Shown here piece after piece: positions 8,208-25,631 of a stretch of DNA of 64,000 nt (the stretch's first letter is position 1; each line of letters opens with the position of its first letter). Location of the stretch: positions 80,904 to 144,903 of the forward strand of contig CAWDEX010000003.1 of NCBI GenBank assembly GCA_963801475.1, in the 5' to 3' direction. Position numbers and translations under genes: made by a program. This DNA comes from an uncultured Acidobacteriota bacterium (GTDB taxonomy: Bacteria; Acidobacteriota; Thermoanaerobaculia; UBA5066). A model generated the notes under the pieces. That model was given only the letters and a program-made list of their open reading frames with translations, was not told the DNA's origin and ran no database searches.

Positions 8208-9598
8208 GCCTCGACCTCGCCCGCGGCCGCGAGGAGACCGTCCCGCGCCGTCCGGGCCTCGGCCCGCTTCGCGGCCGCGGCCGCCGGATCGGAGGCGTCG
8301 AGACGGTGCGCCTCGACCTCGCTCCTGAGCCACCGGTCGGCCTGACGGTAGTAGGCGCGGCTGTGCCGCCCGGCGATCCGGTGGTCGCGGTCCGTCGCGT
8401 CCTCCCAGGCCTTATCGAGAACGACGCGTCCGGCCACCTTCCCGAAGTAGCCGGTGTTCCGGATGGGATAGGAGACCGTCGTGAAGAAGACGTCGGGCCC
8501 CGCCTGCTTGACGTGCTCGATCGTCGCCTCGATGTCCTCCACCGTCTCGCCGTCGTACCCCCACATCAGGAACATCCCGACCCCGATGCCGTGTCGCTGC
8601 GCGGCCCGGGTGGCCCACCGCACCTGCTCCACGGTCACTCCCCGTTGCATGGCGTCGAGGATCCGCTGGCTGCCGCTCTCGGAGCCGATCCAGATCCGCG
8701 AGCACCCCATCGCCGCGAGGGTCTCGAGAACCTCTTCCTTCATCATCCGGTCGGCCCGCGAGATCGTCTCGAACGGGATCCGGAGTCCGCGGGACTTCAG
8801 CTCCCGCGCGTAGGCGAAGAGCCAGCCGTGCTGCAGCGTGAAGACGTCGTCGGCGTACCAGAGCTGGTCGGGGCGGTACCGGTCGCGGATCCGCTCGACC
8901 TCGGCGGCCACGTTCGCCGGCGAGCGGCGGCGGTGCGTGAACCCGAAGACGGCGTGCGAGCACCAGTCGCACTTGTACGGACAGCCCCGGGCGGTGATCA
9001 GGTTGACGCTTCCCGCGCCGTGGTGCCTCCTCCAGACGTCGACGTACGCCGCGGTGTCGATCGCCTCGCGGTCCGGATCGGGGAGGAGGTCGAGGTCGGG
9101 GATCTGCGCCCGCTCGCCGTTCGTCACGACGCGCCCGTCCCCGTCGCGAAAGACGGTCCCCGCGACGCCGTGAAGGCGGTGCGGCCCGCGGGCGGCGAGG
9201 GCGGGCAGGAGGTCCGCCATCGTCTCCTCCCCCTCGCCGAGGACGACGACGTCCGCGCCCCGTTCCAGGTACTCCGCGGGATAGTTCGCGCTCTCCGGGC
9301 CGCCGAGGACGACCGTGAAGCCGAGCGACTTCGCCCGGGCCGCGATCTCGACGACCGGCCGCCGCGTCATGAGGTTCGTGTAGAGGCCGAGGACCTTCGT
9401 CCCCGGCCACGCCTCCAATGCGGCGTCAAGCTCGTCCCTCGTCCGGAAGGTCGTGTCGAAGACCTCGACGGCGACGCCGCGGCTCTTCAGGAAGGCCGAC
9501 ACGTAGAGAAGACCGAGAGGCGGATACGGCTTCATGATCTGCCGCTCCTTCTCGTCCTCGGCGAGGAAGTAGCCGTGCGAGAGGAGAAGGTCGCTCAC
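8204..9598 (-). CDS. B12-binding radical SAM protein, paralog B
   Basis: 'LLLSHGYFLAEDEKERQIMKPYPPLGLLYVSAFL' B12-binding-domain N-terminus and 'TARGCPYKCDWCSHA' CxxxCxxC. The start is chosen as GTG 9598 (VSDLLL) by alignment with paralog D (MAGRRLLLAHSFFL), giving a GTGA overlap with the upstream gene. An alternative ATG lies at about 9535. Confidence 0.75.
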   Translation of the reverse strand: MSDLLLSHGYFLAEDEKERQIMKPYPPLGLLYVSAFLKSRGVAVEVFDTTFRTRDELDAALEAWPGTKVLGLYTNLMTRRPVVEIAARAKSLGFTVVLGGPESANYPAEYLERGADVVVLGEGEETMADLLPALAARGPHRLHGVAGTVFRDGDGRVVTNGERAQIPDLDLLPDPDREAIDTAAYVDVWRRHHGAGSVNLITARGCPYKCDWCSHAVFGFTHRRRSPANVAAEVERIRDRYRPDQLWYADDVFTLQHGWLFAYARELKSRGLRIPFETISRADRMMKEEVLETLAAMGCSRIWIGSESGSQRILDAMQRGVTVEQVRWATRAAQRHGIGVGMFLMWGYDGETVEDIEATIEHVKQAGPDVFFTTVSYPIRNTGYFGKVAGRVVLDKAWEDATDRDHRIAGRHSRAYYRQADRWLRSEVEAHRLDASDPAAAAAKRAEARTARDGLLAAAGEVEA

Positions 9599-10971
9599 GC
9601 GTCCTCGCGGAACGCGGGCCGGAGGTGCCCGTATTCCTGCGAGTTGGCCGGCGTGAGGCCTCCGGACGCCGCGGCGAAGGCCGCCACCCGGGCCCTCAGC
9701 TCGGGCTTGAGCCACGGCACACGCGGGTCCTCGTGCGTCATCCACCCCATCCACTCGGGCTCGATCCACTCTTCGAGCGAACCGGGCGTACCGTCGATCG
9801 GATCGACGTTCCCGTACGTCCCGCGCCTCTGCGGCGTCGGCGTGTAGTAATAGGTGATCAGCTTCATCGTCGGGTTCACAGCCTTGAGACGCCGGATGAA
9901 GGCGAGTGTCTTTTCGGCCTCGGCCTCGGGGTCGTCGGGATCGCCGAACATGAAGGAGAACTCCGGAACGATGCCGTGCTCCCGGGCCCTCGCCGCAAAC
10001 GCAAGGGTCTGCTCCGTCGTCAGGTTCTTCGACATCCTCGCGAGGGTCGCGTCCGATCCCGACTCGGCGCCGAGGTAGACCATGGTGCAGCCGGAGCGGC
10101 GGATCTTCTCCCATGTCCGGTCGGAGAAGCGGAGCATGACGTCGATCCGGGCCTCGCACCACCAGCGAAGCTCCAGCGGAGTCATCCGTTCGGCGATCTC
10201 GCCGGCGTGCGCCTCGGACTGGAAGAAGTTGTTGTCGTAGAAGTGGAGACCGTCCATCCCGTGCCCCCGGACGAGGCCGGAGAGGTTCTCGACGGTCCGG
10301 GCGGGGTTCTCGAATTTCTCCCGGCTTCCGTAGACGGAGATCACGCCGCAGAAGTTGCACGTGTAAGGGCAGCCGATCGAGGCCTGGTAGACGCCGCTCC
10401 GCCGGCCGAGAAAGGTCGGTTCGAGATAGTCATCCACGTCGATTCGCCCGTACGGAGGCGGCGGCAGCTCGTCGGGACCGACCCACGGCCGTTCGGCGTT
10501 CAGCCGGACGGACCCGGCCTCCTTCCAGCCGAGACCGGCGACCGACGAGGGTTCGCGACGGCCTTCGAGAACTTCGAGAAGCTCGAGGAACGTCCGCTCA
10601 CCCTGGCCGCGCACGATCCAGTCGACGTACGGTGCGGCCAGGACCGTCCCCGGATAGAGGGAAGGAAAGTACCCGCCCCAGACGACGGGAACCCGTGGAA
10701 ACCTCTTCTTCAGCCTCTTCGTCAGCGGGACGGCGGCGGCGAGCTGCGGGCCGGGCATGACCGTGAACGCCAGCAGGCGAACGCGGTCGCCTGCCGCTTC
10801 GGCCGCTTCGGCCCGCTGGACGACGGCGTTGAAGACGTCCGGGTCCGGCCGGTTTCCGTCCACGATGTCCCACGTTTCACCCTCGGGAAGCGCGGCCCCG
10901 AGCGCCATGACGGAGAGAGGGAACCGCCGATGGAGGGGCCTCGTCGCCCGGGGGTTGATCAGGAGGATCAT
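9595..10971 (-). CDS. B12-binding radical SAM protein, paralog C
   Basis: 'MILLINPRATRPL...' N-terminus typical of B12-rSAM enzymes, and 'SIGCPYTCNFCGV' CxxxCxxC. 458 aa. Confidence 0.75.
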   Translation of the reverse strand: MILLINPRATRPLHRRFPLSVMALGAALPEGETWDIVDGNRPDPDVFNAVVQRAEAAEAAGDRVRLLAFTVMPGPQLAAAVPLTKRLKKRFPRVPVVWGGYFPSLYPGTVLAAPYVDWIVRGQGERTFLELLEVLEGRREPSSVAGLGWKEAGSVRLNAERPWVGPDELPPPPYGRIDVDDYLEPTFLGRRSGVYQASIGCPYTCNFCGVISVYGSREKFENPARTVENLSGLVRGHGMDGLHFYDNNFFQSEAHAGEIAERMTPLELRWWCEARIDVMLRFSDRTWEKIRRSGCTMVYLGAESGSDATLARMSKNLTTEQTLAFAARAREHGIVPEFSFMFGDPDDPEAEAEKTLAFIRRLKAVNPTMKLITYYYTPTPQRRGTYGNVDPIDGTPGSLEEWIEPEWMGWMTHEDPRVPWLKPELRARVAAFAAASGGLTPANSQEYGHLRPAFREDA

Positions 10972-10981
10972 GGCGCGGGCG

Positions 10982-12457
10982 CTATGACGCGTCCCGGGCG
11001 CCGGCCGCCGCGGCGCGCGGAAGACCGGCGGAGGGGAGGATCTTCCGCTCGGAGCGGAAGTCCGCCTCGCGCCAGGCGAGGTCCTTCCAGGCGTCGTCGA
11101 TCGCCGCCGGCTCCATGGGCCCTTCCCGTCCCGTGAGGACGAGCGCCTCGGCGTGCAGGAGGTCGCGCACGGTCCGGTAGAACGGGCTCGTGTAGGTCCC
11201 CTCGAAAAGCATCGCCAGCTCGTCCGTGTCGCTCCAGTTCTTCTGGTTCCGCATCTGATCCCGGACGCGGTCGTAGAACACGGTGCCCGGGAGAGGGTAA
11301 GAGACGGAGACGCCGATGTCGTGCGGCCGCTCCTCGCGGAGGAGCTGGCGCGTCGAGAGAATCTCCCCCCACGTCTCGCCCGTGTAGCCGAGCTGGAGGA
11401 ACCACGACGGGAGGATCCCGTGGCGTTTGAGGAGCCGGGTGGCCGACCGGGTCTGCTCCACGCGCGCCCCCTTGTCCATCGCGTCGAGGACCTTCTGCGA
11501 GCCCGACTCGACCCCCATCCAGACCTCCTCGCACCCGGCGTGGGAGAGGGCGGCGACGGCCGAGGGGGTCATCAGGTCGATGCGCGACTGCATCGTGAAG
11601 GGGATCCGGGCGTCCCGGCGGTCCACCTCCTCGGCGAACGACTCGATCCAGCGCGGCGTCAGGCCGAAGATGTCGTCGGCGAACCAGAGGTGGTCGGGGC
11701 GGACACGGGTCTTGAGCGCGGCCATCTCGTCGGCGACGGCCTGAGGGCTCCGCTGCGCGTACCGCGTGCCGTAGAGGGGCTTCGCGCACCAGTTGCAGCG
11801 GTAGGGGCAGCCGCGGGTCGTCACGGCGTTCCATGAGAAGCGCCCGTGCGCCCGCAGCCACGTGGCCCGGTAGCGCGCGGCGTCGACGAGGTCCCACGCG
11901 GGAAGGGGGAGGGCGTCGAGGTCCTCGAGGAACGGGCGGGGCGGTGTCCGGTGGACGAGGCCCCCCTCCGCGGGCAGGGCGAGCCCTGCGATCCCGGTGA
12001 GGCACGGCACGGGAGCGGCCCACGCGGCGACGAGCTCGGGGGCCGTCCGCTCGGTCTCGCCGAGCATCACGGCGTCGGCTCCGGCCGCGAGGTAGAGCTC
12101 CGGGCGGTCGGCCGCGTCGGGGCTGTTCACGGCCACCGGAAGGCCCCGCTCCTTCGCCGCGCGAATCATCGCGAGGGTTCCCTCCCGCATCCGGGTCGTG
12201 CACATCTTCGTCAGGAAGTTGAAACCGTCCTCGATGAGGAGAACGGCGGCGAAGCGCTCGCCCGCGAGGCGCGGCACGAACTCCTCCTCGCCGGGGGAGA
12301 GCATGGCGTCGAAGAGGGCCACCTCGTACCCGCGAGACCGGAGGACCGCCGCGGTCAGAAGCGTGGCGAGAGGCGGGTAGGGACGCATCTTTCTCGTCTG
12401 CTTCGCGTCGTGCGCCAGGAAGAAGGAATGGGCGAGGAGGAGGCGCCGGCCGGCCAT
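10982..12457 (-). CDS. B12-binding radical SAM protein, paralog D
   Basis: 'MAGRRLLLAHSFFLAHDAKQTRKMRPYPPLATLL' and 'TTRGCPYRCNWCAKP'. The ATG at 12457 is preferred by homology with paralog B over the track start at 12475. Confidence 0.75.
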   Translation of the reverse strand: MAGRRLLLAHSFFLAHDAKQTRKMRPYPPLATLLTAAVLRSRGYEVALFDAMLSPGEEEFVPRLAGERFAAVLLIEDGFNFLTKMCTTRMREGTLAMIRAAKERGLPVAVNSPDAADRPELYLAAGADAVMLGETERTAPELVAAWAAPVPCLTGIAGLALPAEGGLVHRTPPRPFLEDLDALPLPAWDLVDAARYRATWLRAHGRFSWNAVTTRGCPYRCNWCAKPLYGTRYAQRSPQAVADEMAALKTRVRPDHLWFADDIFGLTPRWIESFAEEVDRRDARIPFTMQSRIDLMTPSAVAALSHAGCEEVWMGVESGSQKVLDAMDKGARVEQTRSATRLLKRHGILPSWFLQLGYTGETWGEILSTRQLLREERPHDIGVSVSYPLPGTVFYDRVRDQMRNQKNWSDTDELAMLFEGTYTSPFYRTVRDLLHAEALVLTGREGPMEPAAIDDAWKDLAWREADFRSERKILPSAGLPRAAAAGARDAS

Positions 12458-12464
12458 AATGAGA

Positions 12465-13391
12465 CTATATCTCACTTGATCGCGCGATGGTTTCGAGACG
12501 GCGGAGGGCTCCGGCGAGGTCCCGGGCGCCGTCCAGCCGGAATCCGCCCCGGGCCCCCCAGGCGCGGGCGAGGACGTCCGGGTCCGCCCCGTCCCGCTCC
12601 TGCGGGATCTCCCCGTCCCGGAACGCCGCGGCGAACGCCTCGGCCGGGAGCGACACGAGCGCTGCCGGCGTCCGATCGCGATCTCCGAGAAGAACCGCGG
12701 CGGCGAGCCGGGCGTGGCGGGCTACGGGCGACGTCCCGGTCCAGAGGTCGACCCGCCGCTTCGCCTCGCCGCCTGTAAACGCGGGCTCCGTCCGGTCGAA
12801 GAGGCCGAGAAGCTCCGCGCCGTCGGGAAGGAGCGTCAGGTCACGGACGCCGGCGGCCAGTTCCTCCGGGTCCTCGCGGGCCACGAGGAGGCTCTCGTCG
12901 GCCAGGACGGAAAGGCCCTCGCCGGCGAGCGCCGCCGCGAGGGTCGACTTTCCGGCTCCCGGACCGCCGCGGATCACGATTGTGCCTCGTGGCCCGACGA
13001 TGGCGGCCGCGTGAAGGATCTGCCACTTCCGGCGGGAGAGGAGCGCCGTCGCCGGCGCCTCGAAAAGGTAACGCGCCGCAAGGGCCGGATCCCGCGAGAG
13101 GAGAGCGCGGGACACACGCGCCTCGACACGCGCCGCCGTCACATCGATCCGCGCGCGGAGGAGATCGCCAAGGGCCAGCTCCCAGCCGTCACGTCTCCTC
13201 TTCCAGACGAGTCCGCGCTCCGGGAGCTGGCCTGCCTCCGGGCCCTCGAGAACGGCAACGTCGAACCGGATCGCGTCCGGATCGGCCTCCCGAGCGGGCT
13301 CCCAGAGCGTCTCGGCGAGGACAAACGGCAACGGGTCGTCCGAAGTGAGGACGAGTCGGTCGCGGGGCGGAGCGAAGACTCTGACGGGCAA
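12465..13391 (-). CDS. HPr-kinase-C-terminal-domain-like P-loop kinase (HprK-related)
   Basis: 'VIRGGPGAGKSTLAAALAGEGLSVLADESLLV' matches the HprK C-domain Walker-A pattern plus 'L(V/A)(A)DE'. It has no HprK N-domain. It is the first gene of the rSAM operon. Its start codon is uncertain (TTG/GTG). Confidence 0.55.
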   Translation of the reverse strand: MPVRVFAPPRDRLVLTSDDPLPFVLAETLWEPAREADPDAIRFDVAVLEGPEAGQLPERGLVWKRRRDGWELALGDLLRARIDVTAARVEARVSRALLSRDPALAARYLFEAPATALLSRRKWQILHAAAIVGPRGTIVIRGGPGAGKSTLAAALAGEGLSVLADESLLVAREDPEELAAGVRDLTLLPDGAELLGLFDRTEPAFTGGEAKRRVDLWTGTSPVARHARLAAAVLLGDRDRTPAALVSLPAEAFAAAFRDGEIPQERDGADPDVLARAWGARGGFRLDGARDLAGALRRLETIARSSEI

Positions 13392-13450
13392 TCAGGGAAA
13401 CTCGCGCAACCTTTTCCGGGGTATCGGCGTCCATACTCTCACGGAGAGGA

Positions 13451-16400
13451 TTGCCTGTGAGAGCCGCACGCCACGTCCTGCTTCCCGTCCTCGTTTCGGC
13501 CGTTCTCCTCCCGGTCGCGGCGCCGGCGGCCGCCGGCGAGATCCGGGGCCGGCTCCTCGTCGGCGAGAAGCCGGCGTCGGGCGTCTCGGTGACGGCTCTT
13601 CACTACGAGCCGCCTCTCGAGGCGGCCCGGCGACAGGCTCGGGGCGGCGGGGAGCCGAAAGCGGTCGTCGGCGCGACCACCGGGGCGGACGGCCGGTTCG
13701 CGCTGGCCGTTCCTTCGGAGCCGCCCGGGGGATTCGTCGTCCGCCTGTCCGGCGCCGATGTCCGGGCGGCCGAGGTCGAAGGCGTGTTCGACGCCTCCGA
13801 GGTCGTCGATCTCGGCGATCACGTTCTCGCGATCGGAGAGGCGCTCGCCGGAACCGTTCTCGACCGGACGGGCCGGCCGGTGGCGGGAGCGGAGGTGACG
13901 CTGCTCGCCGCGACGCCGGGCGGCGGGGATCTGGTCGCGGTGCCGGTCCGGACGACGACGGGAGCGGACGGCACCTTCCGGCTGGACGGTGCGGCGGGAG
14001 ACCGGGGGACGAACGCCCTCCGGGTCGAGATGAAGGGATTCGCGCCCTTTGCGGAGACCCTCGCGAAGGCGGGCGCCCTGTCGACGCCGGTCGTCCTCGC
14101 CCCGGGCGTCACCCTTTCCGGAACCGTCAGGCCGCTTCCCGGAAGAACCGCCGCGGGAGCCCTCGTCCGCTTCGAAGGGCGAGCGGAGACGCGCTGGGTC
14201 GAGACCGGTCCGGACGGGACCTTCACGATTCCGGATGCGCCGCCGGGCAGAGGCCGTCTCGTCGCCGACGCCGGAGAAGCGGGATTCGGCGAAGCGACGG
14301 GCCTCGTTCTACCGCTCGCGGAGGGGAAGGGCGCCACCGTCGCCCTCATGCGGCCCGCCTCGCTCGAGGGGCGCGTCGTGGACGCGAAGACGCTCCGGGC
14401 CGTCGCGCGTGCGAAGGTGAGCGTCAGCCGGGGCGCCCTCCGGCGGACGGTCCGCTCCGGACCGGATGGCCGGTACGTCCTCGCCCCGGTTCCTCCGGGG
14501 ACGTGGAGCTTCCAGGCCGACGAGCCGCGATTCGTTCTCTTGCGGAAGAACGTCACGATCGCCCCGGGCGAGACGATGAAGCTGGACGCCCCGCTCGTCC
14601 CCGGCGCCACGCTCGCCGGACGCGTGACGGACGAGAACGGTCAGCCGGTCGCCGGAGCGCAGGGAACGTTCGCCCCGGCCACCATGACCGGAATTGCGGC
14701 GCTGCTCCGCCAGGCCCGGGCCGGGGGAGGGGCGACCGCTTTCCGGACGGCCGCCGACGGGACCTTCCGGGCGTCGCGTCTCGCCCCGGGCGAGAACCAG
14801 CGGCTCACCGTCGGCCACCCCGACTACGCCGCGACGACGGTGGGCGGAATCAACCTTCTCTCCGGCCAGTCGTCGGCCAACCTGGCCATCGTTCTGCGGC
14901 GCGGGACCGTCGTCGCCGGCGTCGTCCGGGACAAGGACGGCGCGCCCGTGGAGGGAGCCGAGGCCGAAGTCCAGCTGGGGATGAGCTTCCGCGGAGGGCG
15001 CGGCGGTGCTGCGGCCCAGATCAACGTCCTGCCGGGCCCCGGCGGCGTGCGCGGGCGCCCGCCCGTGAGGACCGGCGCGGACGGCCGGTTCGAGCTCCGC
15101 GGCCTCTCTCCGGGGGACTACACGCTCTGGATCAGGAAGAGCGGATTCGCCACCGAGCGGATCGATCCCGTGAAGGTGCCGGAGAACGGCTCGCCCGAGG
15201 CGATCACGGTCACGCTGGGGCCGGGCGCGGCGATCGCGGGAATCGTCCGCCAGAAGAGCGGCACCCCCGCCGAAGGGTGGTCCGTTCTCGCGAGCGAGGC
15301 CGGCACGTCGGCGATCGGGCCGCGGGCCCGTGCCAACCTAAACCCGACGGGCGCGGACGGCCTCTTCGTTCTCGAAGGGCTCAAGCCCGGGCAGGCGTAC
15401 GACCTCCAGCTCGTCGGCGGGCCGGGGATCGGCCCGTCGCGAAAAGGCGTCGTCCCGCCCGCCGACGGCGTCGAGATCGTCGTCGCGGGAGGCGGGCGGA
15501 TCGCGGGGCGCGCCGTGGACGCACAGTCGGGACGCCCGATCCCGGAATACGCCGTCTCCTACGAGCCGGAGCGGACGGGCGGCGGCGGCGTCTTCCGGAT
15601 CGTGAACCGGATGGCGGGGCAGCGCCTGACCGGGATGGGAGAGAAGACCGAGGTCCGGTCGGACGACGGGACGTTTCTCCTCGAGGACGTCCCGCCCGGG
15701 ACGTGGTCCGTCGTCGTCGAAGCGAAGGGATACCAGCCTGCGCGCGCCGGAAACGTCGTCGTCGAGGAAGGGAAGACCGTGGGAGACGTCGAGGTGAAGG
15801 CCTCCCTCGGAAGCTTTCTCAAGGGGCGCGCTCTCGACTCGGTCTCGGGCCGTCCGGTTCCCGGCGCCACCGTGACGCACGGCACGGGGGGCGCCGGTGG
15901 CGGTCCTCTCGCCCTTCTGGCCGGTGCGGCGAGCGACGAAGAGACCACGACCGACGCGGACGGGGCGTTCAACCTCGACGGCCTCGTCCCCGGAAAGGTC
16001 ACGCTGACCGTGAAGCATCCGGATTACGCCGACGCGACCCAGACGATCGACGTGAGGGAAGGAACGGCGGCCGTCGACATCAAGCTGGCGCCGGGAAGCG
16101 CTCTCGGCGGTCTCGTCCTCTCCGACGGGCAGCAGCCGCTCCCGGGCGCCAGCGTCGCCCTTCAGTCGGCGGGCGACGCCGGCTTCGGCCGCGGCCTGCT
16201 CGCCGGGGGGCAGACCGTCGTGACCGACGCCTCGGGGCGCTTCCGCTTCGACCACCTCCCGTCGGGGCGATACGGCCTCGTCGCGTCGATCCAGAACCGG
16301 TCCAGCGCGACCCAGACGATCGTCCTTCAGGACGGCCAGGCTCGCGACGACGCCGTCCTTAAGATCGCGGCCGGCGCGACGCTGCAGGGGGTCGTGAGCG

Positions 16401-17668
16401 GAATCCCCGATTCCTGGAAGAACGGGATGACGATCACGGCGAGCGGCGCCGAGTCGTTCAGCGGATCGACGCGGACCGGCGCGGACGGGAGCTTCCAGTT
16501 CGCCGGCGTACCGGCCGGGACCGTGACGCTTCGCGCGACGGCGGGGGACTTCGCCGGCTCGTCCCGCAGCGTCCTCAAGCAGGTCGAGATGCCCGACGGC
16601 CAGCCGGTCGTCCAGACCGAGATCGTCTTCGATCCGGGCTACGTTCTGTCGGGACGGGTCACGCGGTCCGGCGAGCCGCTCCCGAACGTCACGGTCATCG
16701 CGAGCCTGATCGGCGGCGGCGGACGGCAGGCCTCCTCGAGAACGGACGACGGCGGCTCGTACCGGATGGAGGGGCTCGCCGAGGGAACGTACAACGTCAT
16801 GGCGGCGGCGAACGTCCTCGGCGGGTCGATGCACAGTCAGCAGGTGGTCCTGAACGGGGACCAGAGCGTCGACATCGCCTTCCCGTCCGGGAAGATCGGC
16901 GGGACGGTCGTGGACTCGCAGGCCTCGAAGCCTCTTTCGGAGGCCGTCGTCCAGATTACGCCGGCCGACCCGAACGCGGCTCCCGCCGGAGGGCGGACGA
17001 CCCGTTCGGCCACGACCGACAGCAACGGAGCCTTCGTGATCACGGACCTCGATCCCGTCAGCTACACCCTGAACATCCAGAAGCCCGACTACGTCTTCCA
17101 CAGGCTCAGCATCACGGCTGCCGAGCAGGGGACCGACGGACTCACCTTCCAGATGAGCCGCGGCCAGGGGATCGGAGTCGTCGGGCGGGATGGCGTCTAC
17201 GGCGTCCCGCTCCACGGCCTGATGGCCCGCGTCCTCGACGGCGCCGGCGCTCCCGCGTTCACGGGCGCGATCCCTCTCGATGGAAACGGGGTCGGCGAGA
17301 TCCCGTCGCTCCCGCCGGGGAGCTACACGCTGATGGCGAGCGCGAGCGGCTACGCCGTCACGACGATCCCGAACGTCTCCGTTCCCTCAGCTCCCGTCAC
17401 GGTCTCGCTGACACCGGGCGGGAGCGCGGAGATCCGTTCCGGACCGAAGACGCTCGCGACCGGGACCGCCCGGATGCAGATCCTGACGGCCGCGGGAACG
17501 CCGTACCCGTTCAATCTCTTCAGCGCGGACGGGACCTTCGCCGTCTCGACCCCGGTCCGGCGGATCGACAACCTCGCGCCCGGCAGCTACGTCCTCGCCG
17601 TGACGGGAGGCGCCCCGAAGGGCTTCGCCGTCCGGGAAGGGGGCGTCACGCCCGTCGAGCTGCCCTAG
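13451..17668 (+). CDS. secreted giant protein of ~14 tandem carboxypeptidase-regulatory-like (CarboxypepD_reg-like) domains
   Basis: N-terminal signal peptide 'RAARHVLLPVLVSAVLLPVAAPAAAGE'. A ~90-100 aa module recurs with the motif '(G)xVxDxxGxPVxGAxV...tDxxGxFxL...PGxYxL', for example 'GRVVDAKTLRAVARAKVSV', 'GRVTDENGQPVAGAQGTF' and 'GVVRDKDGAPVEGAEAEV'. There is an RBS 'GGAGAGGA' before GTG 13457. Confidence 0.65.
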   Translation: MPVRAARHVLLPVLVSAVLLPVAAPAAAGEIRGRLLVGEKPASGVSVTALHYEPPLEAARRQARGGGEPKAVVGATTGADGRFALAVPSEPPGGFVVRLSGADVRAAEVEGVFDASEVVDLGDHVLAIGEALAGTVLDRTGRPVAGAEVTLLAATPGGGDLVAVPVRTTTGADGTFRLDGAAGDRGTNALRVEMKGFAPFAETLAKAGALSTPVVLAPGVTLSGTVRPLPGRTAAGALVRFEGRAETRWVETGPDGTFTIPDAPPGRGRLVADAGEAGFGEATGLVLPLAEGKGATVALMRPASLEGRVVDAKTLRAVARAKVSVSRGALRRTVRSGPDGRYVLAPVPPGTWSFQADEPRFVLLRKNVTIAPGETMKLDAPLVPGATLAGRVTDENGQPVAGAQGTFAPATMTGIAALLRQARAGGGATAFRTAADGTFRASRLAPGENQRLTVGHPDYAATTVGGINLLSGQSSANLAIVLRRGTVVAGVVRDKDGAPVEGAEAEVQLGMSFRGGRGGAAAQINVLPGPGGVRGRPPVRTGADGRFELRGLSPGDYTLWIRKSGFATERIDPVKVPENGSPEAITVTLGPGAAIAGIVRQKSGTPAEGWSVLASEAGTSAIGPRARANLNPTGADGLFVLEGLKPGQAYDLQLVGGPGIGPSRKGVVPPADGVEIVVAGGGRIAGRAVDAQSGRPIPEYAVSYEPERTGGGGVFRIVNRMAGQRLTGMGEKTEVRSDDGTFLLEDVPPGTWSVVVEAKGYQPARAGNVVVEEGKTVGDVEVKASLGSFLKGRALDSVSGRPVPGATVTHGTGGAGGGPLALLAGAASDEETTTDADGAFNLDGLVPGKVTLTVKHPDYADATQTIDVREGTAAVDIKLAPGSALGGLVLSDGQQPLPGASVALQSAGDAGFGRGLLAGGQTVVTDASGRFRFDHLPSGRYGLVASIQNRSSATQTIVLQDGQARDDAVLKIAAGATLQGVVSGIPDSWKNGMTITASGAESFSGSTRTGADGSFQFAGVPAGTVTLRATAGDFAGSSRSVLKQVEMPDGQPVVQTEIVFDPGYVLSGRVTRSGEPLPNVTVIASLIGGGGRQASSRTDDGGSYRMEGLAEGTYNVMAAANVLGGSMHSQQVVLNGDQSVDIAFPSGKIGGTVVDSQASKPLSEAVVQITPADPNAAPAGGRTTRSATTDSNGAFVITDLDPVSYTLNIQKPDYVFHRLSITAAEQGTDGLTFQMSRGQGIGVVGRDGVYGVPLHGLMARVLDGAGAPAFTGAIPLDGNGVGEIPSLPPGSYTLMASASGYAVTTIPNVSVPSAPVTVSLTPGGSAEIRSGPKTLATGTARMQILTAAGTPYPFNLFSADGTFAVSTPVRRIDNLAPGSYVLAVTGGAPKGFAVREGGVTPVELP

Positions 17669-17674
17669 GCCGGG

Positions 17675-18208
17675 CTACTCGCGGACCCAGACGTTCGAGG
17701 CCGGATTCCAGCGGAACGCGGCGACGGCTCCGGACGGGCAGCAGTTCGCGTCGCCGTCCTGGTAGACGGGGAAGCGCCGCCGGAGGACGCCGCCCGCGGC
17801 CGTGTACGTGTCGTGTCCCCGGTATCCGGTCTGCTGGTCGGGCATCAGGTCGGCGACGATCCCGCCGTGGAACCGCTCTCTCTTCCACTCCCAGATGTCG
17901 AGTCGCCCGTACGCACCGCTCCCGGACGACGAGATGAAGACGACCAGGTCGCGATTTCCGTCGCCGGTGACGTCCTCGAAGAAGACGTTCGTGATCGTCC
18001 CGTCGCGCTTGAGCTTCACGACCTGGGGCCTCATCCCTTTCCCGGTGATCGTGACCGTGTAGCTCCCGATGGCGCACGGTTCTTTCGGCGGCACCGTCAC
18101 GTGGACGGTGACGCCGTCACCCGCCAGCATCGAGTCGTACGCGCAGCCCGCGCCGGCGAGAGCCCGGGAGGCGAGGGACAAGACGACGGCGGCGACGGTG
18201 CGTCGCAT
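17675..18208 (-). CDS. putative lipoprotein, function unknown
   Basis: It has a lipobox 'LAGAGC' after an h-region, a 'DVTGDGNRDLVVF' FG-GAP-like segment and a C-terminal Cys pair 'ANCCPSG'. Function is unknown. Confidence 0.4.
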   Translation of the reverse strand: MRRTVAAVVLSLASRALAGAGCAYDSMLAGDGVTVHVTVPPKEPCAIGSYTVTITGKGMRPQVVKLKRDGTITNVFFEDVTGDGNRDLVVFISSSGSGAYGRLDIWEWKRERFHGGIVADLMPDQQTGYRGHDTYTAAGGVLRRRFPVYQDGDANCCPSGAVAAFRWNPASNVWVRE

Positions 18209-18249: not shown

Positions 18250-21200
18250 GTGCAGCGGCGGGGGGATCCGCTCCATCACGCGATCGCCGCCGCGGAACCG
18301 GTGGCGCGCCTCGCGGCGCGGCTCGAGGAGGGAGTCCTCGGGACGCGGACGGGACTCGTGTCTCTCGTCGGGGCGCCCCCGGGGCTCCTGCCGTACCTCC
18401 TCGACGCGGCGGGGGCGGCGGCCGGCCTCCGCTTCACGGTCGTCTTCGCCCACGAGCGCGATGCCCTCGCCTTCCGGCGCGACGCCGAGGCCGTGCTCGG
18501 TCTCTCGAGGGTGGCCTACTTTCCCGCCCCGTCCCTGACGCCCTATCAGGGGATCGCGCCCTCTCTGAAGGTGCGGCGCGAGGAGTTCGGTGCGCTCGCC
18601 CGACTGCGGCTCAGGGAGCCCGACCTTCTCGTCGTCCCCGCCCGCGCGCTCTTCCGCATCCTCCCTCCTCCGGAGGACTTCGCCCGCCGCTGTCTCCGGT
18701 TGGCGGCGGGCGACGCGGGTGCGCCGGCGCAGCTCGTCGCGCCGCTCCTGACCGAGGGATACCTCCGGGCGGACCTCGTGACGGAGTGCGGCGACGTGGC
18801 GGTTCGCGGCGGGCTCGTCGACGTCTTCCCGCCGCACCTCGGAGAGCCGGTCCGGATCGAGTTCGACGGCGACCGGGTGGCGTCGCTCCGGACCTTCGAT
18901 CCCGACACGCAGCGGTCGACGGGAACGCTCGAGACCGTCCTTCTGCCGCCGATGGCCTCGACGCCCGACACCGCCGGGACGCGGGACGCGGCCCGACGGG
19001 TCCTCGACGACTGCCGGACGGGAGACGACGAGCCGCCGGTGCCGCGCGATCCCTCGCTCGCCCGGAAGAGCGACGGGCTGGAGGAGCTGCTGCCGCTCCT
19101 GGCCGGCTCCGGCGCGGCCTCGCACGTCCTCGATCACGCGGGCTCGTTCCTCCTCGCGGTGGACGACCCCGACGCCGTCGCGCAGGAGCTGTTGGCCGCC
19201 GCCGACCTCCTCCGGCTCGACTACGAGCGGGCCCGCGCGTCGGGACGGGTGGTCCCCGACCCGATCCGGCTCGGCGGCGACCCGGGGGCCGTGGCGGACC
19301 AGGTGGCGGCCCGGACGCTCCTCGCTTTCGCGCCCGCCGTCCCGGTCGGAGAGGTCGTCGCGCTGGGCGCCGAGTCGGTCGTCTCGTTCGAGGACCGTCT
19401 CCCCGACGCTCCGAAGGAGATCGCCCGCGCGCGCCGCGACGGCCTCGCCGTCGTCCTCGCCGCGCCGTCGAAGGGGGAGCGCGAGCACGTCGAGCGGCTC
19501 CTGTCGGAGTACGACGTGGACCATGCCGGCGAGGCGATCTCACCCCTCGCGCCCGGCTCGTGCCGCGTCGCGGACGGCGGGCCGGCATCCGGCTTCACCT
19601 TCCGCGCCGCCGGGCTGCTCCTGCTCACCGCATCCGACCTGTTCGGCGAGCCGCGGGCGTGGGCGCCGAAGCGGAAGGCGGCCTCCGAGGCGTTCCTCTC
19701 GGACCTCCGCGACCTGAAGCCGGGCGACGTCGTCGTCCACCGCGACTACGGCCTCGGGAAGTTCGCGGGCCTCGTCACGATCGACGACGCCGGCGTCCTT
19801 CGCGAGATGGTCGACCTCCGCTACGCCGGGGAGGCGAAGCTCCTCGTCCCGGTCGAGCGGCTCGACCTGATCCAGAAGTACTCCTCGGCCGGCGACGGCG
19901 CGCCGCCGCCGCTCGACCGACTCGGCGGGGCCGGCTGGGAGAAGCGGAAGTCGAAGGTGCGGAAGGCCGTCCGCGATCTGGCCGACCAGCTCGTGAAGCT
20001 CTACGCGCAGCGCGCCGCCGCGGCGGGGCACGCCTTCTCGAAGGACTCGCCGTGGCAGAAGGAGTTCGAGGACGCCTTCGAATTCACGGAGACGCCGGAC
20101 CAGGCGGCCGCCATCCGCGACGTGAAGCACGACATGGAGTCGGAGCGGCCGATGGACCGGCTCCTCTGCGGAGACGTCGGCTACGGCAAGACCGAGGTCG
20201 CCATGCGGGCGGTCTTCAAGTGCGTCCTCGACGGGAAGCAGGCCGCCTTCCTCGCGCCGACGACGATCCTGGCCGACCAGCATTTCCGGACGCTGAAACG
20301 CCGCTTTGCGGCCTTTCCGGTCACGATCGACCTCCTCTCGCGCTTCCGCTCCCCCGACGAGATCAAAGGGGTGCTCCGCCGCCTTTCGGAAGGGACGCTC
20401 GACGTCGTCGTCGGCACCCACCGGCTCCTCTCGAAGGACGTCGCGTTCCGCGACCTCGGCCTCCTGGTCGTCGACGAGGAGCAGCGCTTCGGCGTGGCGC
20501 AGAAGGAGCGGATCAAGGAGATGCGGACCTCGGTCGACGTCCTCTCGATGTCCGCGACGCCGATCCCGCGCTCGCTTCACCTCTCGCTCGCGGGGATCCG
20601 CGAGCTGTCGGTCATCGAGACGCCGCCGAAGGACCGGCTCGCCGTCGCGACGCACGTCGTCCCCCTGGGTGACGAGGTCGTGCGGGAGGCCGTCGCCGCG
20701 GAGCTCGAGCGGGGCGGCCAGGTCTACGTGGTCCACAACCGGATCGGCGGCCTCGGCGCCTGGCGCGAGAGGCTGGCGGAGCTGGCGCCGCGGGCGAAGG
20801 TGGCGGTCGCCCACGGCCAGATGTCCGAAGGGGAGCTCGAACGGGCCATGCGGGCGTTCGTGACGCGGGCGGCCGACCTCCTCCTCGCCACGACGATCGT
20901 CGAGAACGGGCTCGACATCCCCGCGGCGAACACGATGCTCATCGACCGGGCCGATCTCTACGGCCTGGCCCAGCTCTACCAGCTCCGCGGGCGGGTCGGG
21001 CGGAGCGACAAGCCGGCCTCGTGCTGGCTCCTCGTCCCGCCGGGTGCGCCGCTCTCGGACGACGCGCGGCGGCGCCTCCGCGTCCTGCAGGAGTTCTCGG
21101 ACCTCGGCGCGGGTTTCCGGATCGCCGCGAAAGACCTCGAGATCCGCGGGGCGGGCTCGCTCCTCGGGGCCGAGCAGTCGGGGCACATCGAATCGGTCGG

Positions 21201-21765
21201 CTTCGAGACCTACGTCCGGCTCCTCGAGGAGGCGATGGCGGAGACCCGGGGCGAACCCGCTCCCGAGACGCGCGACGTCACGCTGCAGCTCGGCCTTCCG
21301 CTCGCGCTCCCGCCCTCGTGGATCCCGGACGAGAGCCTCCGGATGGCGCTCTACAAGCGGATCGCGGCGGCTCCCGATTCCGCCGCGCTCGAGGCCGAGG
21401 CGGCCGGGGCCGCGGACCGGTACGGCGCCCCGCCCCCGGAGTTTTCCCGGCTCCTCGACGTGGCCCGGTTACGCTTGTTCGCGCGGGCGCTCGGCGTGAA
21501 GGCCGTCCAGCGCCGCGGCGACGAGATGCACGCGACCCTCGAAAAGGACCACCGGCTCGACCCGGACCGGGTGCTCGCGCTCCTCCGGAAGGGAGAGCTC
21601 GCTGCCGCGGGTCCGGACGCGTTCCGCCTGCCGCGGGCCTTCGCCGGCGCGGCGCCGCACGGCGAAGAGGTCTGCGTTCGGGCGGCGCGGCTCCTCGCGT
21701 CGCTGTCGCGCCCCGCCGCCCGCGACACGCTCCCGGCGGCCTTCGCCGGGGGGGAGGCGGCGTGA
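18250..21765 (+). CDS. mfd: transcription-repair coupling factor Mfd
   Basis: 1171 aa. It has superfamily-2 helicase motifs 'LLCGDVGYGKTEVAMRA', 'LLVVDEEQRFGV', 'VLSMSATPIPRSL' and 'QLRGRVGRS', and the TRCF C-terminal region. Confidence 0.9.
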   Translation: MQRRGDPLHHAIAAAEPVARLAARLEEGVLGTRTGLVSLVGAPPGLLPYLLDAAGAAAGLRFTVVFAHERDALAFRRDAEAVLGLSRVAYFPAPSLTPYQGIAPSLKVRREEFGALARLRLREPDLLVVPARALFRILPPPEDFARRCLRLAAGDAGAPAQLVAPLLTEGYLRADLVTECGDVAVRGGLVDVFPPHLGEPVRIEFDGDRVASLRTFDPDTQRSTGTLETVLLPPMASTPDTAGTRDAARRVLDDCRTGDDEPPVPRDPSLARKSDGLEELLPLLAGSGAASHVLDHAGSFLLAVDDPDAVAQELLAAADLLRLDYERARASGRVVPDPIRLGGDPGAVADQVAARTLLAFAPAVPVGEVVALGAESVVSFEDRLPDAPKEIARARRDGLAVVLAAPSKGEREHVERLLSEYDVDHAGEAISPLAPGSCRVADGGPASGFTFRAAGLLLLTASDLFGEPRAWAPKRKAASEAFLSDLRDLKPGDVVVHRDYGLGKFAGLVTIDDAGVLREMVDLRYAGEAKLLVPVERLDLIQKYSSAGDGAPPPLDRLGGAGWEKRKSKVRKAVRDLADQLVKLYAQRAAAAGHAFSKDSPWQKEFEDAFEFTETPDQAAAIRDVKHDMESERPMDRLLCGDVGYGKTEVAMRAVFKCVLDGKQAAFLAPTTILADQHFRTLKRRFAAFPVTIDLLSRFRSPDEIKGVLRRLSEGTLDVVVGTHRLLSKDVAFRDLGLLVVDEEQRFGVAQKERIKEMRTSVDVLSMSATPIPRSLHLSLAGIRELSVIETPPKDRLAVATHVVPLGDEVVREAVAAELERGGQVYVVHNRIGGLGAWRERLAELAPRAKVAVAHGQMSEGELERAMRAFVTRAADLLLATTIVENGLDIPAANTMLIDRADLYGLAQLYQLRGRVGRSDKPASCWLLVPPGAPLSDDARRRLRVLQEFSDLGAGFRIAAKDLEIRGAGSLLGAEQSGHIESVGFETYVRLLEEAMAETRGEPAPETRDVTLQLGLPLALPPSWIPDESLRMALYKRIAAAPDSAALEAEAAGAADRYGAPPPEFSRLLDVARLRLFARALGVKAVQRRGDEMHATLEKDHRLDPDRVLALLRKGELAAAGPDAFRLPRAFAGAAPHGEEVCVRAARLLASLSRPAARDTLPAAFAGGEAA

Positions 21766-22625
21766 GGCTGCGGCCCTTCCTCGGCGTGCTCGTTCTCCCG
21801 GGGGTCGTCCTCCTTCCGGCCTGCACGAAGCGGGTGCCGCGGCCGGCGGCCGACCCCTCCGTGGTCGCGCTCGTCGGCGGCCGTCCGGTGAAGTGGGACG
21901 ACGTGGCGGTCTACCTGAAGGCCGCGGCCGGCGAGGAGCCGAAGGACGTGGCGCCGCGCGTCGCCTCGAGCCTTCTCGACCAGTATCTCGACGAGCTTCT
22001 CCTCGACCGGGCGGAGGAGGACGCGGTGCCGCCTCCGGAGGGGAACACGGCGGCCGAACGGCGACGTTCCCTGATCGCGCGACAGGCCGGCGTGGAGGCG
22101 ATCTCGGAAGACGACCTCCGGAGGGAGTACGCCTCTCACGCGGACCGGTACCGCCGACCCGCGCTCATCCGCGTCTCGCAGCTCTTCTTCCGGAGCCGGG
22201 AGGCAGCCGAAGCCGCCCAGAAACGGCTCCAGGCGGGGGAGCCGTGGCCGGAGATCTCACGGACGCTGAGCCTCGCCCCGAACGCGGCGACGGGGGGCGC
22301 GCTCGGGCTTCTCTCGCGGACCGACCTGCCGCGCGAGTTCGAGAAGGTGCTCTGGGGCCTGTCCGCCGGCCAGACGACCGGGATCGTCGCGGCCCCCCAT
22401 GGCTTTCACATCCTCCGGGTGGACGAACGCTTCGAGTCGCGCGACATCCCCTTCGACGAGGCGAGATCGGCCCTCCGCCTCTCCCTCGCCGAGGATCGGA
22501 GCCTGAAAGCCGCGGCGGATCTCATCTCCGGGGCGCGGCAGCGGCATCCGGTGACGGTCGTGGAGGAGCACCTGCCGTTTCCGTACGTCGGGACGAATCC
22601 GCGGTACGTGGCGTCCTTACGGTGA
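21762..22625 (+). CDS. PpiC/parvulin-type peptidyl-prolyl isomerase lipoprotein (PrsA/SurA-like)
   Basis: Its GTG start overlaps the mfd stop (GTGA). It has a lipobox 'LLPAC' and a parvulin domain 'RVSQLFFRS...GGALGLLSRTDLPREFE...GIVAAPHGFHILRV'. Confidence 0.65.
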   Translation: MRLRPFLGVLVLPGVVLLPACTKRVPRPAADPSVVALVGGRPVKWDDVAVYLKAAAGEEPKDVAPRVASSLLDQYLDELLLDRAEEDAVPPPEGNTAAERRRSLIARQAGVEAISEDDLRREYASHADRYRRPALIRVSQLFFRSREAAEAAQKRLQAGEPWPEISRTLSLAPNAATGGALGLLSRTDLPREFEKVLWGLSAGQTTGIVAAPHGFHILRVDERFESRDIPFDEARSALRLSLAEDRSLKAAADLISGARQRHPVTVVEEHLPFPYVGTNPRYVASLR

Positions 22626-22655
22626 GCGGGCCCCGAGTTCGCTAGACTCCGCGCC

Positions 22656-24302: not shown

Positions 24303-24312
24303 CCGGAGAGGC

Positions 24313-25449: not shown

Positions 25450-25511
25450 GGGAACGGGGAGGGTAGCACCCCGCAAAACCTTCCACAGCGGGACCTTCGT
25501 TCCTTTTCTCC

Positions 25512-25540: not shown

Positions 25541-25545
25541 CGCCG

Positions 25546-25580: not shown

Positions 25581-25631
25581 CTGCGGAGGCTCCCGAGGGC
25601 CCACAGGGGCTCCCGTTTTCCGGGAAGGAAC

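Follow-up and report, generated by a model that had tools for sequence, protein, structure and literature searches.

In carboxypeptidase D and in SusC-type N-terminal extensions, the CarboxypepD_reg-type module occurs once, as an accessory to a peptidase and to a plug and barrel, respectively. In NOMO, tandem Ig-like domains form a flexible "beads on a string" rod by which the ER membrane/lumen spacing is set (PMC8327139), and the lattice protein Kustd1514 carries heavy O-glycosylation (PMC5088730). The window analyzed here, a 64-kb stretch of acidobacterial DNA taken as a whole, contains a gene for a giant protein that, unlike carboxypeptidase D or the SusC extension, consists entirely of 15 such copies, with no catalytic or transport domain.

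Gene and predicted export

The following features define the gene and its leader:

13457..17668, + strand: coding sequence of the giant protein including the stop codon (open reading frame and full-length collinear orthologues)
13443..13450, + strand: ribosome-binding site GGAGAGGA, 6 nt 5' of GTG 13457 (sequence inspection)
13457..13534, + strand: predicted Sec-type signal peptide, residues 1-26 (hydrophobicity and orthologue alignment)

The open reading frame on the + strand extends from TTG 13451 or GTG 13457 to the stop codon at 17668, and its reality is upheld by a GC3 of 0.88, which is a coding signature, as well as by domain matches and orthologues. GTG 13457 is the likely start, giving a product of 1403 aa; GGAGG is found at the matching distance from the start in the orthologues. 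The length of 1405 aa in the initial annotation applies to the maximal frame only, because TTG 13451 directly abuts GGAGAGGA; similarly, the divergent gap to the minus-strand TTG 13391 is 59 bp, as annotated, when counted to TTG 13451, but 65 bp from GTG 13457.

The leader comprises MRAARH, a hydrophobic core, and AAA/GEIRGR (the slash marks the junction). The top Kyte-Doolittle 15-mer (residues 7-21) is the sole strongly hydrophobic stretch of the protein, and the AxA/GEIRGR junction is conserved among orthologues while the leader upstream of it varies; this core and junction support the signal peptide proposed initially. The leader has no lipobox cysteine, no hydrophobic segment follows it, and the mature protein is Cys-free, as are 94 of 119 orthologues. 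Searches for a membrane anchor, a sorting signal or a known secretion partner of the protein found none.

Modular architecture

Pfam assigns 13 stretches of the protein to PF13620 (CarboxypepD_reg, E=5e-131), and a repeat HMM derived from the protein's own sequence resolves 15 modules that tile residues 31-1401. Both agree on tandem CarboxypepD_reg-like repeats behind the signal peptide, and the earlier estimate of about 14 domains was close to the count of 15 obtained with the protein's own HMM. The modules, with their i-E values in this HMM, are as follows:

13547..13795, + strand: module 1 (residues 31-113), with a helix/Gly-rich insert (5e-14)
13847..14083, + strand: module 2 (residues 131-209) (2e-20)
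14102..14335, + strand: module 3 (residues 216-293) (2e-17)
14366..14581, + strand: module 4 (residues 304-375) (2e-19)
14615..14875, + strand: module 5 (residues 387-473), with an Arg-rich helix/Gly insert (3e-23)
14915..15199, + strand: module 6 (residues 487-581), with an FRGGRGG insert (6e-25)
15236..15472, + strand: module 7 (residues 594-672) (2e-19)
15503..15781, + strand: module 8 (residues 683-775), with a GGGG/helix insert (5e-25)
15821..16072, + strand: module 9 (residues 789-872), the best PF13620 match (4e-31)
16106..16345, + strand: module 10 (residues 884-963) (3e-24)
16370..16591, + strand: module 11 (residues 972-1045) (8e-15)
16649..16867, + strand: module 12 (residues 1065-1137) (2e-17)
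16898..17140, + strand: module 13 (residues 1148-1228) (1e-24)
17192..17404, + strand: module 14 (residues 1246-1316), degenerate and under the Pfam threshold (2e-13)
17411..17659, + strand: module 15 (residues 1319-1401), degenerate, then the conserved C-terminal ...V-x-L-P (2e-12)

Structure prediction is in line with this delineation, the AF2 models being nearly all beta for residues 27-1226 (pLDDT 80, pTM 0.66) and essentially all-beta for residues 1101-1403 (pLDDT 92.8); module 1 is modeled with beta strands and, at model residues 27-35, a helix. Scans of the protein with Pfam and NCBIfam detected no plug, and they bear out the annotated absence of a TonB barrel and of a catalytic domain.

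A conserved acidobacterial family

We identified more than 115 full-length, collinear orthologues of 1366-1437 aa with 44-80% identity and a coverage of 93-100% (98-100% in nearly all) in Thermoanaerobaculia, Vicinamibacteria, and other Acidobacteriota MAGs. The whole length of the protein is evenly conserved, and the dN/dS values of 0.22-0.43 indicate purifying selection. The modules are 27% identical among themselves vs. 41-59% to the orthologous module, and for every module the orthologous counterpart is nearer than the 14 neighbors are. The giant protein is a conserved, uncharacterised protein of Acidobacteriota, and it is the local member of an old family with a single architecture, in which all 15 positions are individually conserved.

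In acidobacterial TonB-dependent receptors, CarboxypepD_reg domains are common ahead of the plug and barrel, and the giant protein could be read as the N-terminal part of such a receptor, cut off by a frameshift or an assembly error; the initial annotation had named truncation by a frameshift as an outcome that would refute it. This reading has a negligible probability and is refuted by more than 115 orthologues from independent assemblies that share both the length and the ...V-x-L-P C-terminus. Moreover, the stop codon at 17668 is followed 6 nt further on by that of a convergent PliI-like gene, plug or barrel similarity occurs nowhere in the protein, and the 64-kb window contains no second copy of its sequence.

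Relation to the divergent operon

The divergent neighbor was annotated as an rSAM operon, and an operon it is; however, its first gene encodes an HprK-related P-loop protein and not an rSAM enzyme. The seven genes (4934-13391, minus strand), called from Pfam, NCBIfam, frame plot, and start codons, encode this protein, four B12-rSAM enzymes, a methyltransferase, and a SPASM-rSAM enzyme:

12465..13391, - strand: HprK-related P-loop protein, first operon gene (TIGR04352 HprK_rel_A)
12475-10982, - strand: B12-rSAM (Pfam/NCBIfam)
10971-9595, - strand: B12-rSAM (Pfam/NCBIfam)
~9610-8204, - strand: B12-rSAM (Pfam/NCBIfam)
8333-7425, - strand: SAM methyltransferase (Pfam/NCBIfam)
7428-6349, - strand: rSAM-SPASM (Pfam/NCBIfam)
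6352-4934, - strand: B12-rSAM, last operon gene (Pfam/NCBIfam)

The HprK-related protein scores 36 bits against TIGR04352, the cut-off of which is 200, carries the P-loop motif HAGA..G..G....G..GAGKST, and has orthologues of 47-55% identity in L001, L002, and L006.

One explanation of this arrangement, which we consider highly unlikely, holds that the giant protein is a substrate, carrier or scaffold of the operon, modified in the cytoplasm by methylation, cross-linking or phosphorylation prior to export and co-regulated through the 65-bp gap. The giant gene adjoins the operon in 7 of 10 operon loci of species-representative genomes, the divergent pairing recurs among orthologues down to 45% identity, and the head-to-head layout is kept at 45-49% identity while the downstream genes change. 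The operon genes overlap or nearly abut, leaving no space for a small precursor gene, and thus the substrate would be encoded elsewhere. B12-rSAM enzymes are known to act on a large protein, C-methylating residues in methyl-coenzyme M reductase; the rSAM proteins of the operon match TIGR04014 weakly, and the giant family has conserved Arg/Gly-rich surface loops. However, these candidate loops are alike in paired and unpaired proteins, and the pairing, the constancy of which had been put forward as a check on a functional link, is not obligatory in either direction. The giant gene is not within 10 kb in the remaining 3 of the 10 operon loci, and one genome has gene and operon ~80 kb apart on the same contig. 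Conversely, the operon is next to the giant gene in only 8 of ~43 metagenomic orthologues (~35 unpaired) and in three of five looked-up contigs, being missing in the other two, and whole clades of giant-gene loci have no adjoining operon. Near-identical relatives (97.8% at the nucleotide level) differ by a clean operon indel of 7,204 bp, bounded by GCGGAG microhomology, with the giant gene intact and its dN/dS at ~0.2-0.3; operon losses are nested repeatedly inside the paired clade, and dN/dS of the giant gene is equal with and without the operon. Adjacency to the operon is frequent but dispensable, and a partnership with the giant protein is weakly supported: of the functional link proposed earlier, the recurrent divergent pairing stands, but not as an obligatory one. 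The giant protein would then work independently of the HprK-like/rSAM operon, which may be a dispensable cassette beside the giant gene in one lineage.

Promoter-like motif of the giant gene

The region between the two divergent genes contains one further feature:

13404..13439, + strand: putative ECF-sigma-like promoter motif (PWM, orthologue recurrence, and literature consensus)

Its putative -35 element is GCGCAACC, with AACC at 13408-13411, and a 16-nt spacer separates it from the putative -10 element, CGTC at 13428-13431, which is followed by CATACT. This matches the described ECF consensus (-35 AAC, -10 CGT(C), spacer 16+/-1; PMC3426412). The motif is the sole strong PWM match in the 64-kb window (24.7 bits); the second-best match is intragenic and scores 18.1 bits. 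The strict form AACC-N15/16-CGTC is found ahead of orthologues from 4 of 11 other clades (P=5.6e-5, against a background of 2.1% per 290-nt window), or in 5 of 12 clades counting its own, whether the operon is present or not. Among 52 distinct upstream regions, 33 carry the motif, vs. a background of 8.6%, in paired and unpaired loci alike, while about a third of the regions and several clades lack it; with a PWM built from the five closest relatives alone, other clades did not rise above background. A crude motif search found no ECF sigma gene in the 64-kb window.

From these sequence patterns, we infer that the giant gene carries its own ECF-sigma-type promoter; the divergent gap contains no sigma-70-like promoter. 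The annotated sharing of promoter elements, with co-regulation of the two units, is not borne out: the motif upstream of the giant gene does not depend on the operon, and the operon lacks an ECF-like motif of this kind on its own side, both of which also count against the giant protein as the operon's substrate.

Genomic context and proposed role

The chromosomal setting of the giant gene is envelope-rich: mfd, a SurA-like PPIase gene, and the dcw cluster (rsmH, ftsI, ftsW) are located downstream, and in 12 loci mfd recurs 3' of the giant gene. Other neighbors vary by clade and include GH57, acetyl-CoA synthetase, TspO, TPR proteins, and unknowns. Genes for TonB-dependent transporters, SusD-like proteins or glycoside hydrolases are not among the consistent neighbors, which argues against the giant protein as a periplasmic or surface accessory that binds glycans or other polymers for TonB-dependent transporters. 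The same domain type does form the N-terminal extension of transporters in Acidobacteriota and Bacteroidota, and there are matches to the putative carbohydrate-binding proteins 3qec and 4iyk and to a PL4 fn3_3 domain; however, among the invariant columns, mostly Gly/Asp/Phe/Tyr/Pro fold residues, we noted no conserved aromatic platform for binding, and we regard such an accessory function as distinctly improbable.

We give about an even chance to the proposal that the giant protein is a Sec-exported, non-enzymatic, ECF-controlled structural protein of the envelope that is independent of the operon. Transcription from its own ECF-sigma-type promoter would make the gene a member of an envelope-related regulon, and Sec export with cleavage of the signal peptide would release a Cys-free protein consisting only of 15 transthyretin-like (CarboxypepD_reg) modules.

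Comparison with known systems

TIGR04134, "radical SAM-associated putative lipoprotein", reaches a summed 46.1 bits on the giant protein vs. a cut-off of 39.8 bits, the score being made by summed repeats, as no single stretch passes alone. The family is a nominal precedent for the rSAM adjacency, because it describes a small CarboxypepD_reg-like protein beside rSAM genes, as is the giant gene; its model, however, spans 150 residues vs. 1403 aa, and the giant protein has no lipobox cysteine.

The Kustd1514-family S-layer glycoprotein of anammox bacteria is likewise large, exported, and composed of many beta-sandwich modules. The corresponding NCBIfam model NF052345 matches six stretches of the giant protein with 93 bits, which is a domain-level match only, because it is far under the 1400-bit family cut-off, and the giant protein is not a member of this family. 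The top multi-domain Foldseek matches of the predicted structure are CnaB-type stalks of tandem prealbumin-like sandwiches (BaTIE, BcpA, SpaA, SdrD B), and fold matches to the SlaB S-layer protein and to pilins were also obtained from the models; the Pfam SpaA, SdrD_B, and PEGA-domain models match the protein as well. Together with a moderate dN/dS of 0.2-0.4, which is compatible with a surface protein, these matches point to an extracellular lattice, matrix or adhesin, i.e., an S-layer-like or biofilm-matrix component similar to Kustd1514 or to the adhesin and pilin stalks of Gram-positive bacteria, a reading that we consider unlikely but worth weighing. Against this reading, scans of the giant protein turned up no outer-membrane translocation signal, anchor, LPXTG, PEP-CTERM or type IX C-terminal domain. 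Unlike the CnaB stalks, it also has no Lys/Asn(Asp)/Glu isopeptide residues among its invariant columns and, being devoid of Cys, no thioester; its host phylum, Acidobacteriota, is conventionally regarded as diderm. Its fixed number of individually conserved modules is unlike fast-evolving repeat adhesins.

For the preferred reading as a structural envelope protein, the closest comparison is NOMO, a subunit of the BOS complex (PDB 9c7v_B) and the only solved protein retrieved by sequence search, with NOMO2 as the nearest solved relative (E=3.5e-6 with the single sequence, 5.7e-22 with the family profile). NOMO, a eukaryotic protein, has a transmembrane anchor and a cytosolic tail at its C-terminal end, whereas the giant protein has only its signal peptide as a hydrophobic segment. 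The two align non-collinearly, in two- or three-domain pieces in shifted registers, and global superposition of the model is poor (TM <0.1); the likeness is at the domain level only. Nevertheless, both have ~1200-1400 aa and consist almost entirely of tandem transthyretin/CarboxypepD_reg-like sandwiches behind a signal peptide. By analogy with NOMO, the giant protein may form an elongated multi-domain array, periplasmic or on the cell surface, with a structural or scaffolding role in the envelope.

Reading Frame and Domain Architecture of the Giant Protein

The giant gene is an open reading frame on the + strand that runs from TTG 13451 or GTG 13457 to a stop at 17668; in a window of ~72% G+C, its GC3 of 0.88 is the third-position signature of a real gene. 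The motif GGAGAGGA (13443-13450) leaves 6 nt to GTG 13457 and none to TTG 13451, therefore GTG 13457 is the likely start; GGAGG stands at an equal distance from the start codons of the orthologous genes. The initial annotation had called the reading frame correctly, with the product now shortened from 1405 to 1403 aa, and its divergent arrangement with the rSAM operon stands, with the gap of 59 bp corrected to 65 bp. No paralogue of this gene occurs elsewhere in the window.

A Pfam search matched PF13620 (CarboxypepD_reg) at 427.7 bits (cut-off 32.3, E = 5e-131) in 13 stretches of the protein and PF13715 at 181.6 bits in 4 stretches; all matches other than PF13620 are to related β-sandwich families (PF13715, EMC7, SpaA, SdrD_B, PEGA, and others). 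The protein thus belongs to the CarboxypepD_reg family both by its score above the gathering threshold and by its ~80-residue transthyretin-like β-sandwich. An iterated HMM of its internal repeats delineated 15 modules that tile residues 31-1401, which bears out the description as a pure CarboxypepD_reg array and raises its count of ~14 modules by one. AlphaFold2 (AF2) models, built on 67-sequence alignments, are essentially all-β for both residues 27-1226 (pLDDT 80, pTM 0.66) and residues 1101-1403 (pLDDT 92.8). Short helices are limited to low-confidence Gly/Arg-rich loops, which occupy the same insertion place in several modules:

Residues ~52-70, 404-428, 506-536, 700-730, and 806-830 (window ~13610-15946), + strand, Arg/Gly-rich inserts of modules 1, 5, 6, 8, and 9

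Each insert combines a short Arg-rich amphipathic helix with a Gly run at one common loop position of its module (EAARRQARGGG, IAALLRQARAGGG, FRGGRGG, ERTGGGGVFRIVNR, and GGAGGGPLALLAG), and the inserts are conserved family-wide, AF2 confidence being low there.

Pfam finds no plug, barrel, or catalytic domain in the protein; the initial annotation had likewise seen no barrel or catalytic domain, and had named the case that would overturn its description, namely the N-terminal part of a TonB-dependent receptor truncated by a frameshift. A truncated receptor of the SusC/Oar type is rejected: there is no match to PF07715 or PF00593 at E up to 0.1, the C-terminal 303 residues are modelled as sandwich modules, and the orthologues end at the same position.

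The first 26 residues form a typical Sec leader, and strongly hydrophobic 15-mers occur at residues 6-25 and nowhere else. The leader varies among the orthologues, with the AxA|GEIRGR junction at its end always conserved. The mature protein is free of Cys, as are 94 of 119 orthologues, and the leader also lacks Cys. At the other end, the orthologues conserve a C-terminal ...V-x-L-P, which in the giant protein reads ...GVTPVELP. An exported protein made purely of CarboxypepD_reg domains is thus real and was correctly described.

A Widespread Orthologous Family

At least 120 matches are listed from a large protein collection, nearly all of them full-length (1366-1437 aa), sharing 44-80% identity with the query and covering 93-100% of it (98-100% in almost every case). 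Named sources include Thermoanaerobaculia, Vicinamibacteria, 'Acidobacteriia', and other Acidobacteriota MAGs. None of the listed matches exceeds 80% identity, therefore the window's own genome is absent from the collection searched. Conservation is even along the full length, and dN/dS between relatives is 0.22-0.43. Modules within the protein share 27% identity on average, as compared with 41-59% between a module and its same-position orthologous counterpart; therefore, the array is old and each position has been kept individually, unlike in rapidly expanding repeat adhesins. The giant protein is one of the tandem transthyretin-like domain proteins, a known kind, and belongs to a widespread but uncharacterised orthologue family.

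We found no curated full-length family for the protein and no specific paper on multi-repeat CarboxypepD_reg proteins of Acidobacteria. Many orthologues are annotated by JGI as 'protocatechuate 3,4-dioxygenase beta subunit'. PF00775 matches the giant protein at residues 130-154 only; the name is a misannotation at fold level, as the dioxygenase also has the transthyretin-like sandwich. For annotation, neither the dioxygenase label, which reflects a shared fold, nor the description as a broken TonB receptor applies to the giant protein.

A Predicted ECF-Type Promoter Upstream of the Giant Gene

Within the 65-bp gap there is no sigma-70-like promoter, and neither sigma-70 promoters nor intrinsic terminators were found around either end of the giant gene. 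Instead, the gap carries the following element:

13404-13437, + strand, ECF-like bipartite motif GCGCAACC-N16-CGTCCATACT (core AACC-N16-CGTC at 13408-13431)

ECF-sigma promoters have AAC at -35 and CGT(C) at -10, with a spacer of 16+/-1 (PMC3426412). The motif of the giant gene has the AAC and CGT(C) elements and a spacer within this range, is conserved across orthologues, and is the only strong match in the window; its position in the gap would put the transcription start ~20 nt 5' of the start codon. Among 52 distinct regions upstream of orthologues, 33 have [AG]AC[CT]-N15/16-CGTC oriented as the giant gene is, as compared with a background of 8.6% of 290-nt windows, and the motif sits at -36 to -174 from the start codons in loci with and without the operon. 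In a regular-expression test at the clade level, 4 of 11 other clades have the strict form AACC-N15/16-CGTC, as read from the clade of the window (background 2.1%; P = 5.6e-5), and 6 of 11 have the relaxed form (P = 1.4e-4). We relied on this test in place of a leave-clade-out PWM from the five closest relatives, which was overfitted: 4 of 47 regions scored above the 95th percentile, and the other clades did not separate from background. The joint consensus of the promoter motif is GCGTAACCTTTC...GCGTC(A/T)TAC.

At 22 loci no such motif was seen ahead of the operon on the operon's strand, and a crude region-2 regular expression applied to six-frame translations matched no ECF sigma gene in the window. 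The motif suggests that transcription of the giant gene depends on an ECF sigma factor.

Relationship Between the Giant Gene and the rSAM Operon

The operon standing head-to-head with the giant gene has the following content:

4934-13391, - strand, divergent operon of seven tightly packed genes, starting at TTG 13391
Gene 1, - strand, HprK-related P-loop protein (TIGR04352, 36 bits; motif HAGA..G..G....G..GAGKST)
Subsequent genes in order, - strand, three B12-binding rSAM proteins, a SAM methyltransferase, an rSAM-SPASM protein, and a fourth B12-rSAM protein that ends at 4934

The gene junctions overlap or nearly abut, and therefore leave no room for a small precursor gene. In relatives the operon content varies, with more methyltransferases or an amidohydrolase. 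With five rSAM enzymes, an HprK-like protein, and no precursor gene, the operon is a more unusual feature than the giant gene; a literature search on HprK/B12-rSAM clusters returned nothing specific.

The initial annotation had proposed a functional link between the two units, to be checked by their joint conservation in related genomes. Loci of relatives with the giant gene and/or the operon are numbered with the prefix L, and are termed paired where the two adjoin. On the contigs of five giant orthologues, the operon lies divergently upstream in three (L001, L002, and L006) and is absent upstream at L004, from a Vicinamibacteria MAG, and at L005. An alignment search with the HprK-like protein against species-representative genomes gave at least 13 loci and at least 10 orthologous operons, a small sample; the giant gene is divergently adjacent in 7 of 10 operons among the matches listed, the exceptions being L007, L011 (Holophagales), and L015. 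In the genome of L015, the giant gene is found ~80 kb from the operon on the same 200,940-bp contig, still beside mfd, PPIase, and SurA. Conversely, in a metagenome scan the operon adjoins the giant gene in 8 of ~43 loci having enough upstream sequence. The pair is often retained, but it is not obligatory, and consistent co-location of the kind that would mark a substrate and its maturase was not found in the loci compared. Lack of joint conservation in related genomes, which the initial annotation had named as a ground for refuting its proposal, is thus seen in part.

In the tree of giant proteins, paired loci form one large clade with unpaired loci nested within it. Over 14.4 kb that include the giant gene, the unpaired L023 and the paired L025 share 97.8% identity, and L025 has an extra 7,204 bp that are exactly the operon, bounded by GCGGAG microhomology; the indel junction falls 38 nt 5' of the promoter motif of the giant gene. 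The same pattern of presence and absence is seen for L042 versus L025 and for L044 versus L002. Constraint on the giant gene is equal with or without the operon (dN/dS 0.22-0.34 vs. 0.32). The operon is a dispensable cassette, and the giant gene is independent of it; the divergent pairing is probably the ancestral state of one acidobacterial lineage, in which it has often been kept. Given the adjacency counts and the clean indel between near-identical loci, functional coupling of the giant protein to the rSAM operon is unlikely, and adjacency to the operon is no ground for inferring the protein's function.

One form of coupling would make the operon a facultative decoration cassette, with the HprK-like kinase, the B12-rSAM/SPASM enzymes, and the methyltransferase acting on the giant protein ahead of its Sec export. 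Modules 1, 5, 6, 8, and 9 would offer the candidate sites in their conserved Arg/Gly-rich loops, the candidate chemistry would be C-methylation, cross-linking, or phosphorylation, and strains that have lost the cassette would make an undecorated form. No sequence difference was detected in these loops between paired and unpaired giant proteins, and we consider such decoration improbable. If true, a 150-kDa envelope protein would join small peptides and methyl-coenzyme M reductase as targets of rSAM maturation. The operon itself, present or absent between near-identical strains, deserves its own analysis.

Genomic Neighborhood of the Giant Gene

All-against-all clustering of the flank genes from 68 loci revealed no universal gene partner, the best clusters covering at most 17 loci in a clade-dependent manner; in other clades the neighbours of the giant gene include GH57, acetyl-CoA synthetase, TspO, and TPR proteins as well as unknowns. 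In the window, the giant gene is followed by a convergent gene and, over 18250-34604, by an envelope/division neighbourhood that begins with mfd:

17675-18208, - strand, PliI-like gene (periplasmic I-type lysozyme inhibitor)
22626-24302, SurA-like PPIase
24313-25683, - strand, RNase D-like gene
26079-27047, rsmH/mraW (dcw cluster)
27048-29525, ftsI-type PBP (dcw cluster)
33501-34604, ftsW (dcw cluster)

Between the stop codons of the PliI-like and giant genes there are 6 nt, with no terminator-like hairpin found, and this convergence is kept in the closest relatives (L001, L008, and L020-L022). At 12 loci mfd follows the giant orthologue; unlike the rSAM operon, it recurs there irrespective of whether that operon is present. 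Further along, the final 8 kb of the window (56000-64000) have a G+C of 0.65-0.67, down from ~0.72.

Two other clades have their own arrangements. In one (L002, 14483-17791; equivalents in L013, L023, L025, L026, L030, L040, L042, and L044), a ~670-aa gene with no Pfam match follows the giant gene by 15-80 nt on the same strand, and in most of these loci a ~385-aa TPR protein comes next; in L002 and L013 the TPR gene lies ~200 nt beyond the ~670-aa gene, with a small ORF between them. These three genes may form a clade-specific operon. In the second clade (L036, L037, L039, L041, L073, and L075), another very large protein of ~1350-1390 aa with C-terminal TPR repeats converges on the giant gene (e.g., L036, 14216-18388, - strand), and genes for GH57 and acetyl-CoA synthetase are found upstream.

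Comparison with Known Systems

In soil, Acidobacteriota count among the most abundant bacteria, and to our knowledge their envelope proteins are almost unstudied. We propose, at about an even chance, that the giant protein has a structural or scaffolding, non-enzymatic role in the acidobacterial envelope, is located in the periplasm or at the surface, and is expressed from its own putative ECF-type promoter. A widespread family with 15 fixed, individually conserved modules and apparent ECF-type control makes it a candidate major structural element of this envelope.

Several known systems were considered and set aside. Kustd1514 forms an O-glycosylated two-dimensional surface lattice (PMC5088730); against its S-layer family (NF052345) the giant protein scores 93.2 bits, as compared with a curated cut-off of 1400 bits. 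For TIGR04134, an rSAM-associated putative lipoprotein, the score of 46.1 bits exceeds the cut-off of 39.8 by summed repeats only, no stretch passing alone; moreover, that family has ~150 aa and a lipobox cysteine, whereas the giant protein has 1403 aa and is Cys-free including its leader. A CnaB pilin or adhesin stalk of Gram-positive bacteria is disfavored, as the C-terminus has no LPXTG with a hydrophobic tail. The intradomain isopeptide triad (Lys, Asn/Asp, Glu/Asp) is likewise rejected, a 36-sequence alignment having no invariant or near-invariant Lys and two near-invariant Asn. An alpha-2-macroglobulin-like thioester protein (CxEQ) does not fit the zero Cys of the mature protein or the model, which has no helical domain; Foldseek matches to A2ML1 and A2M have a TM of ~0.06-0.08.

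The nearest relatives of the eukaryotic protein NOMO have been sought among bacterial Ig-fold proteins. Human NOMO2 is the only solved relative of the giant protein by sequence (E = 3.5e-6 with the single sequence, 5.7e-22 with the family profile), and it is matched in shifted registers (e.g., profile 1003-1192 vs. NOMO2 270-454; profile 918-1074 vs. NOMO2 904-1070). The match therefore reflects a tandem domain type in common, not collinear orthology, and without collinear full-length homology identity with this NOMO/BOS-complex subunit is rejected. NOMO also has a C-terminal transmembrane anchor, which is lacking in the giant protein, with its hydrophobic 15-mers confined to the signal peptide. 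NOMO forms a 'beads on a string' rod and contributes to setting the width of the ER lumen (PMC8327139). The giant protein would be a bacterial counterpart, in build, of this eukaryotic ER spacer.
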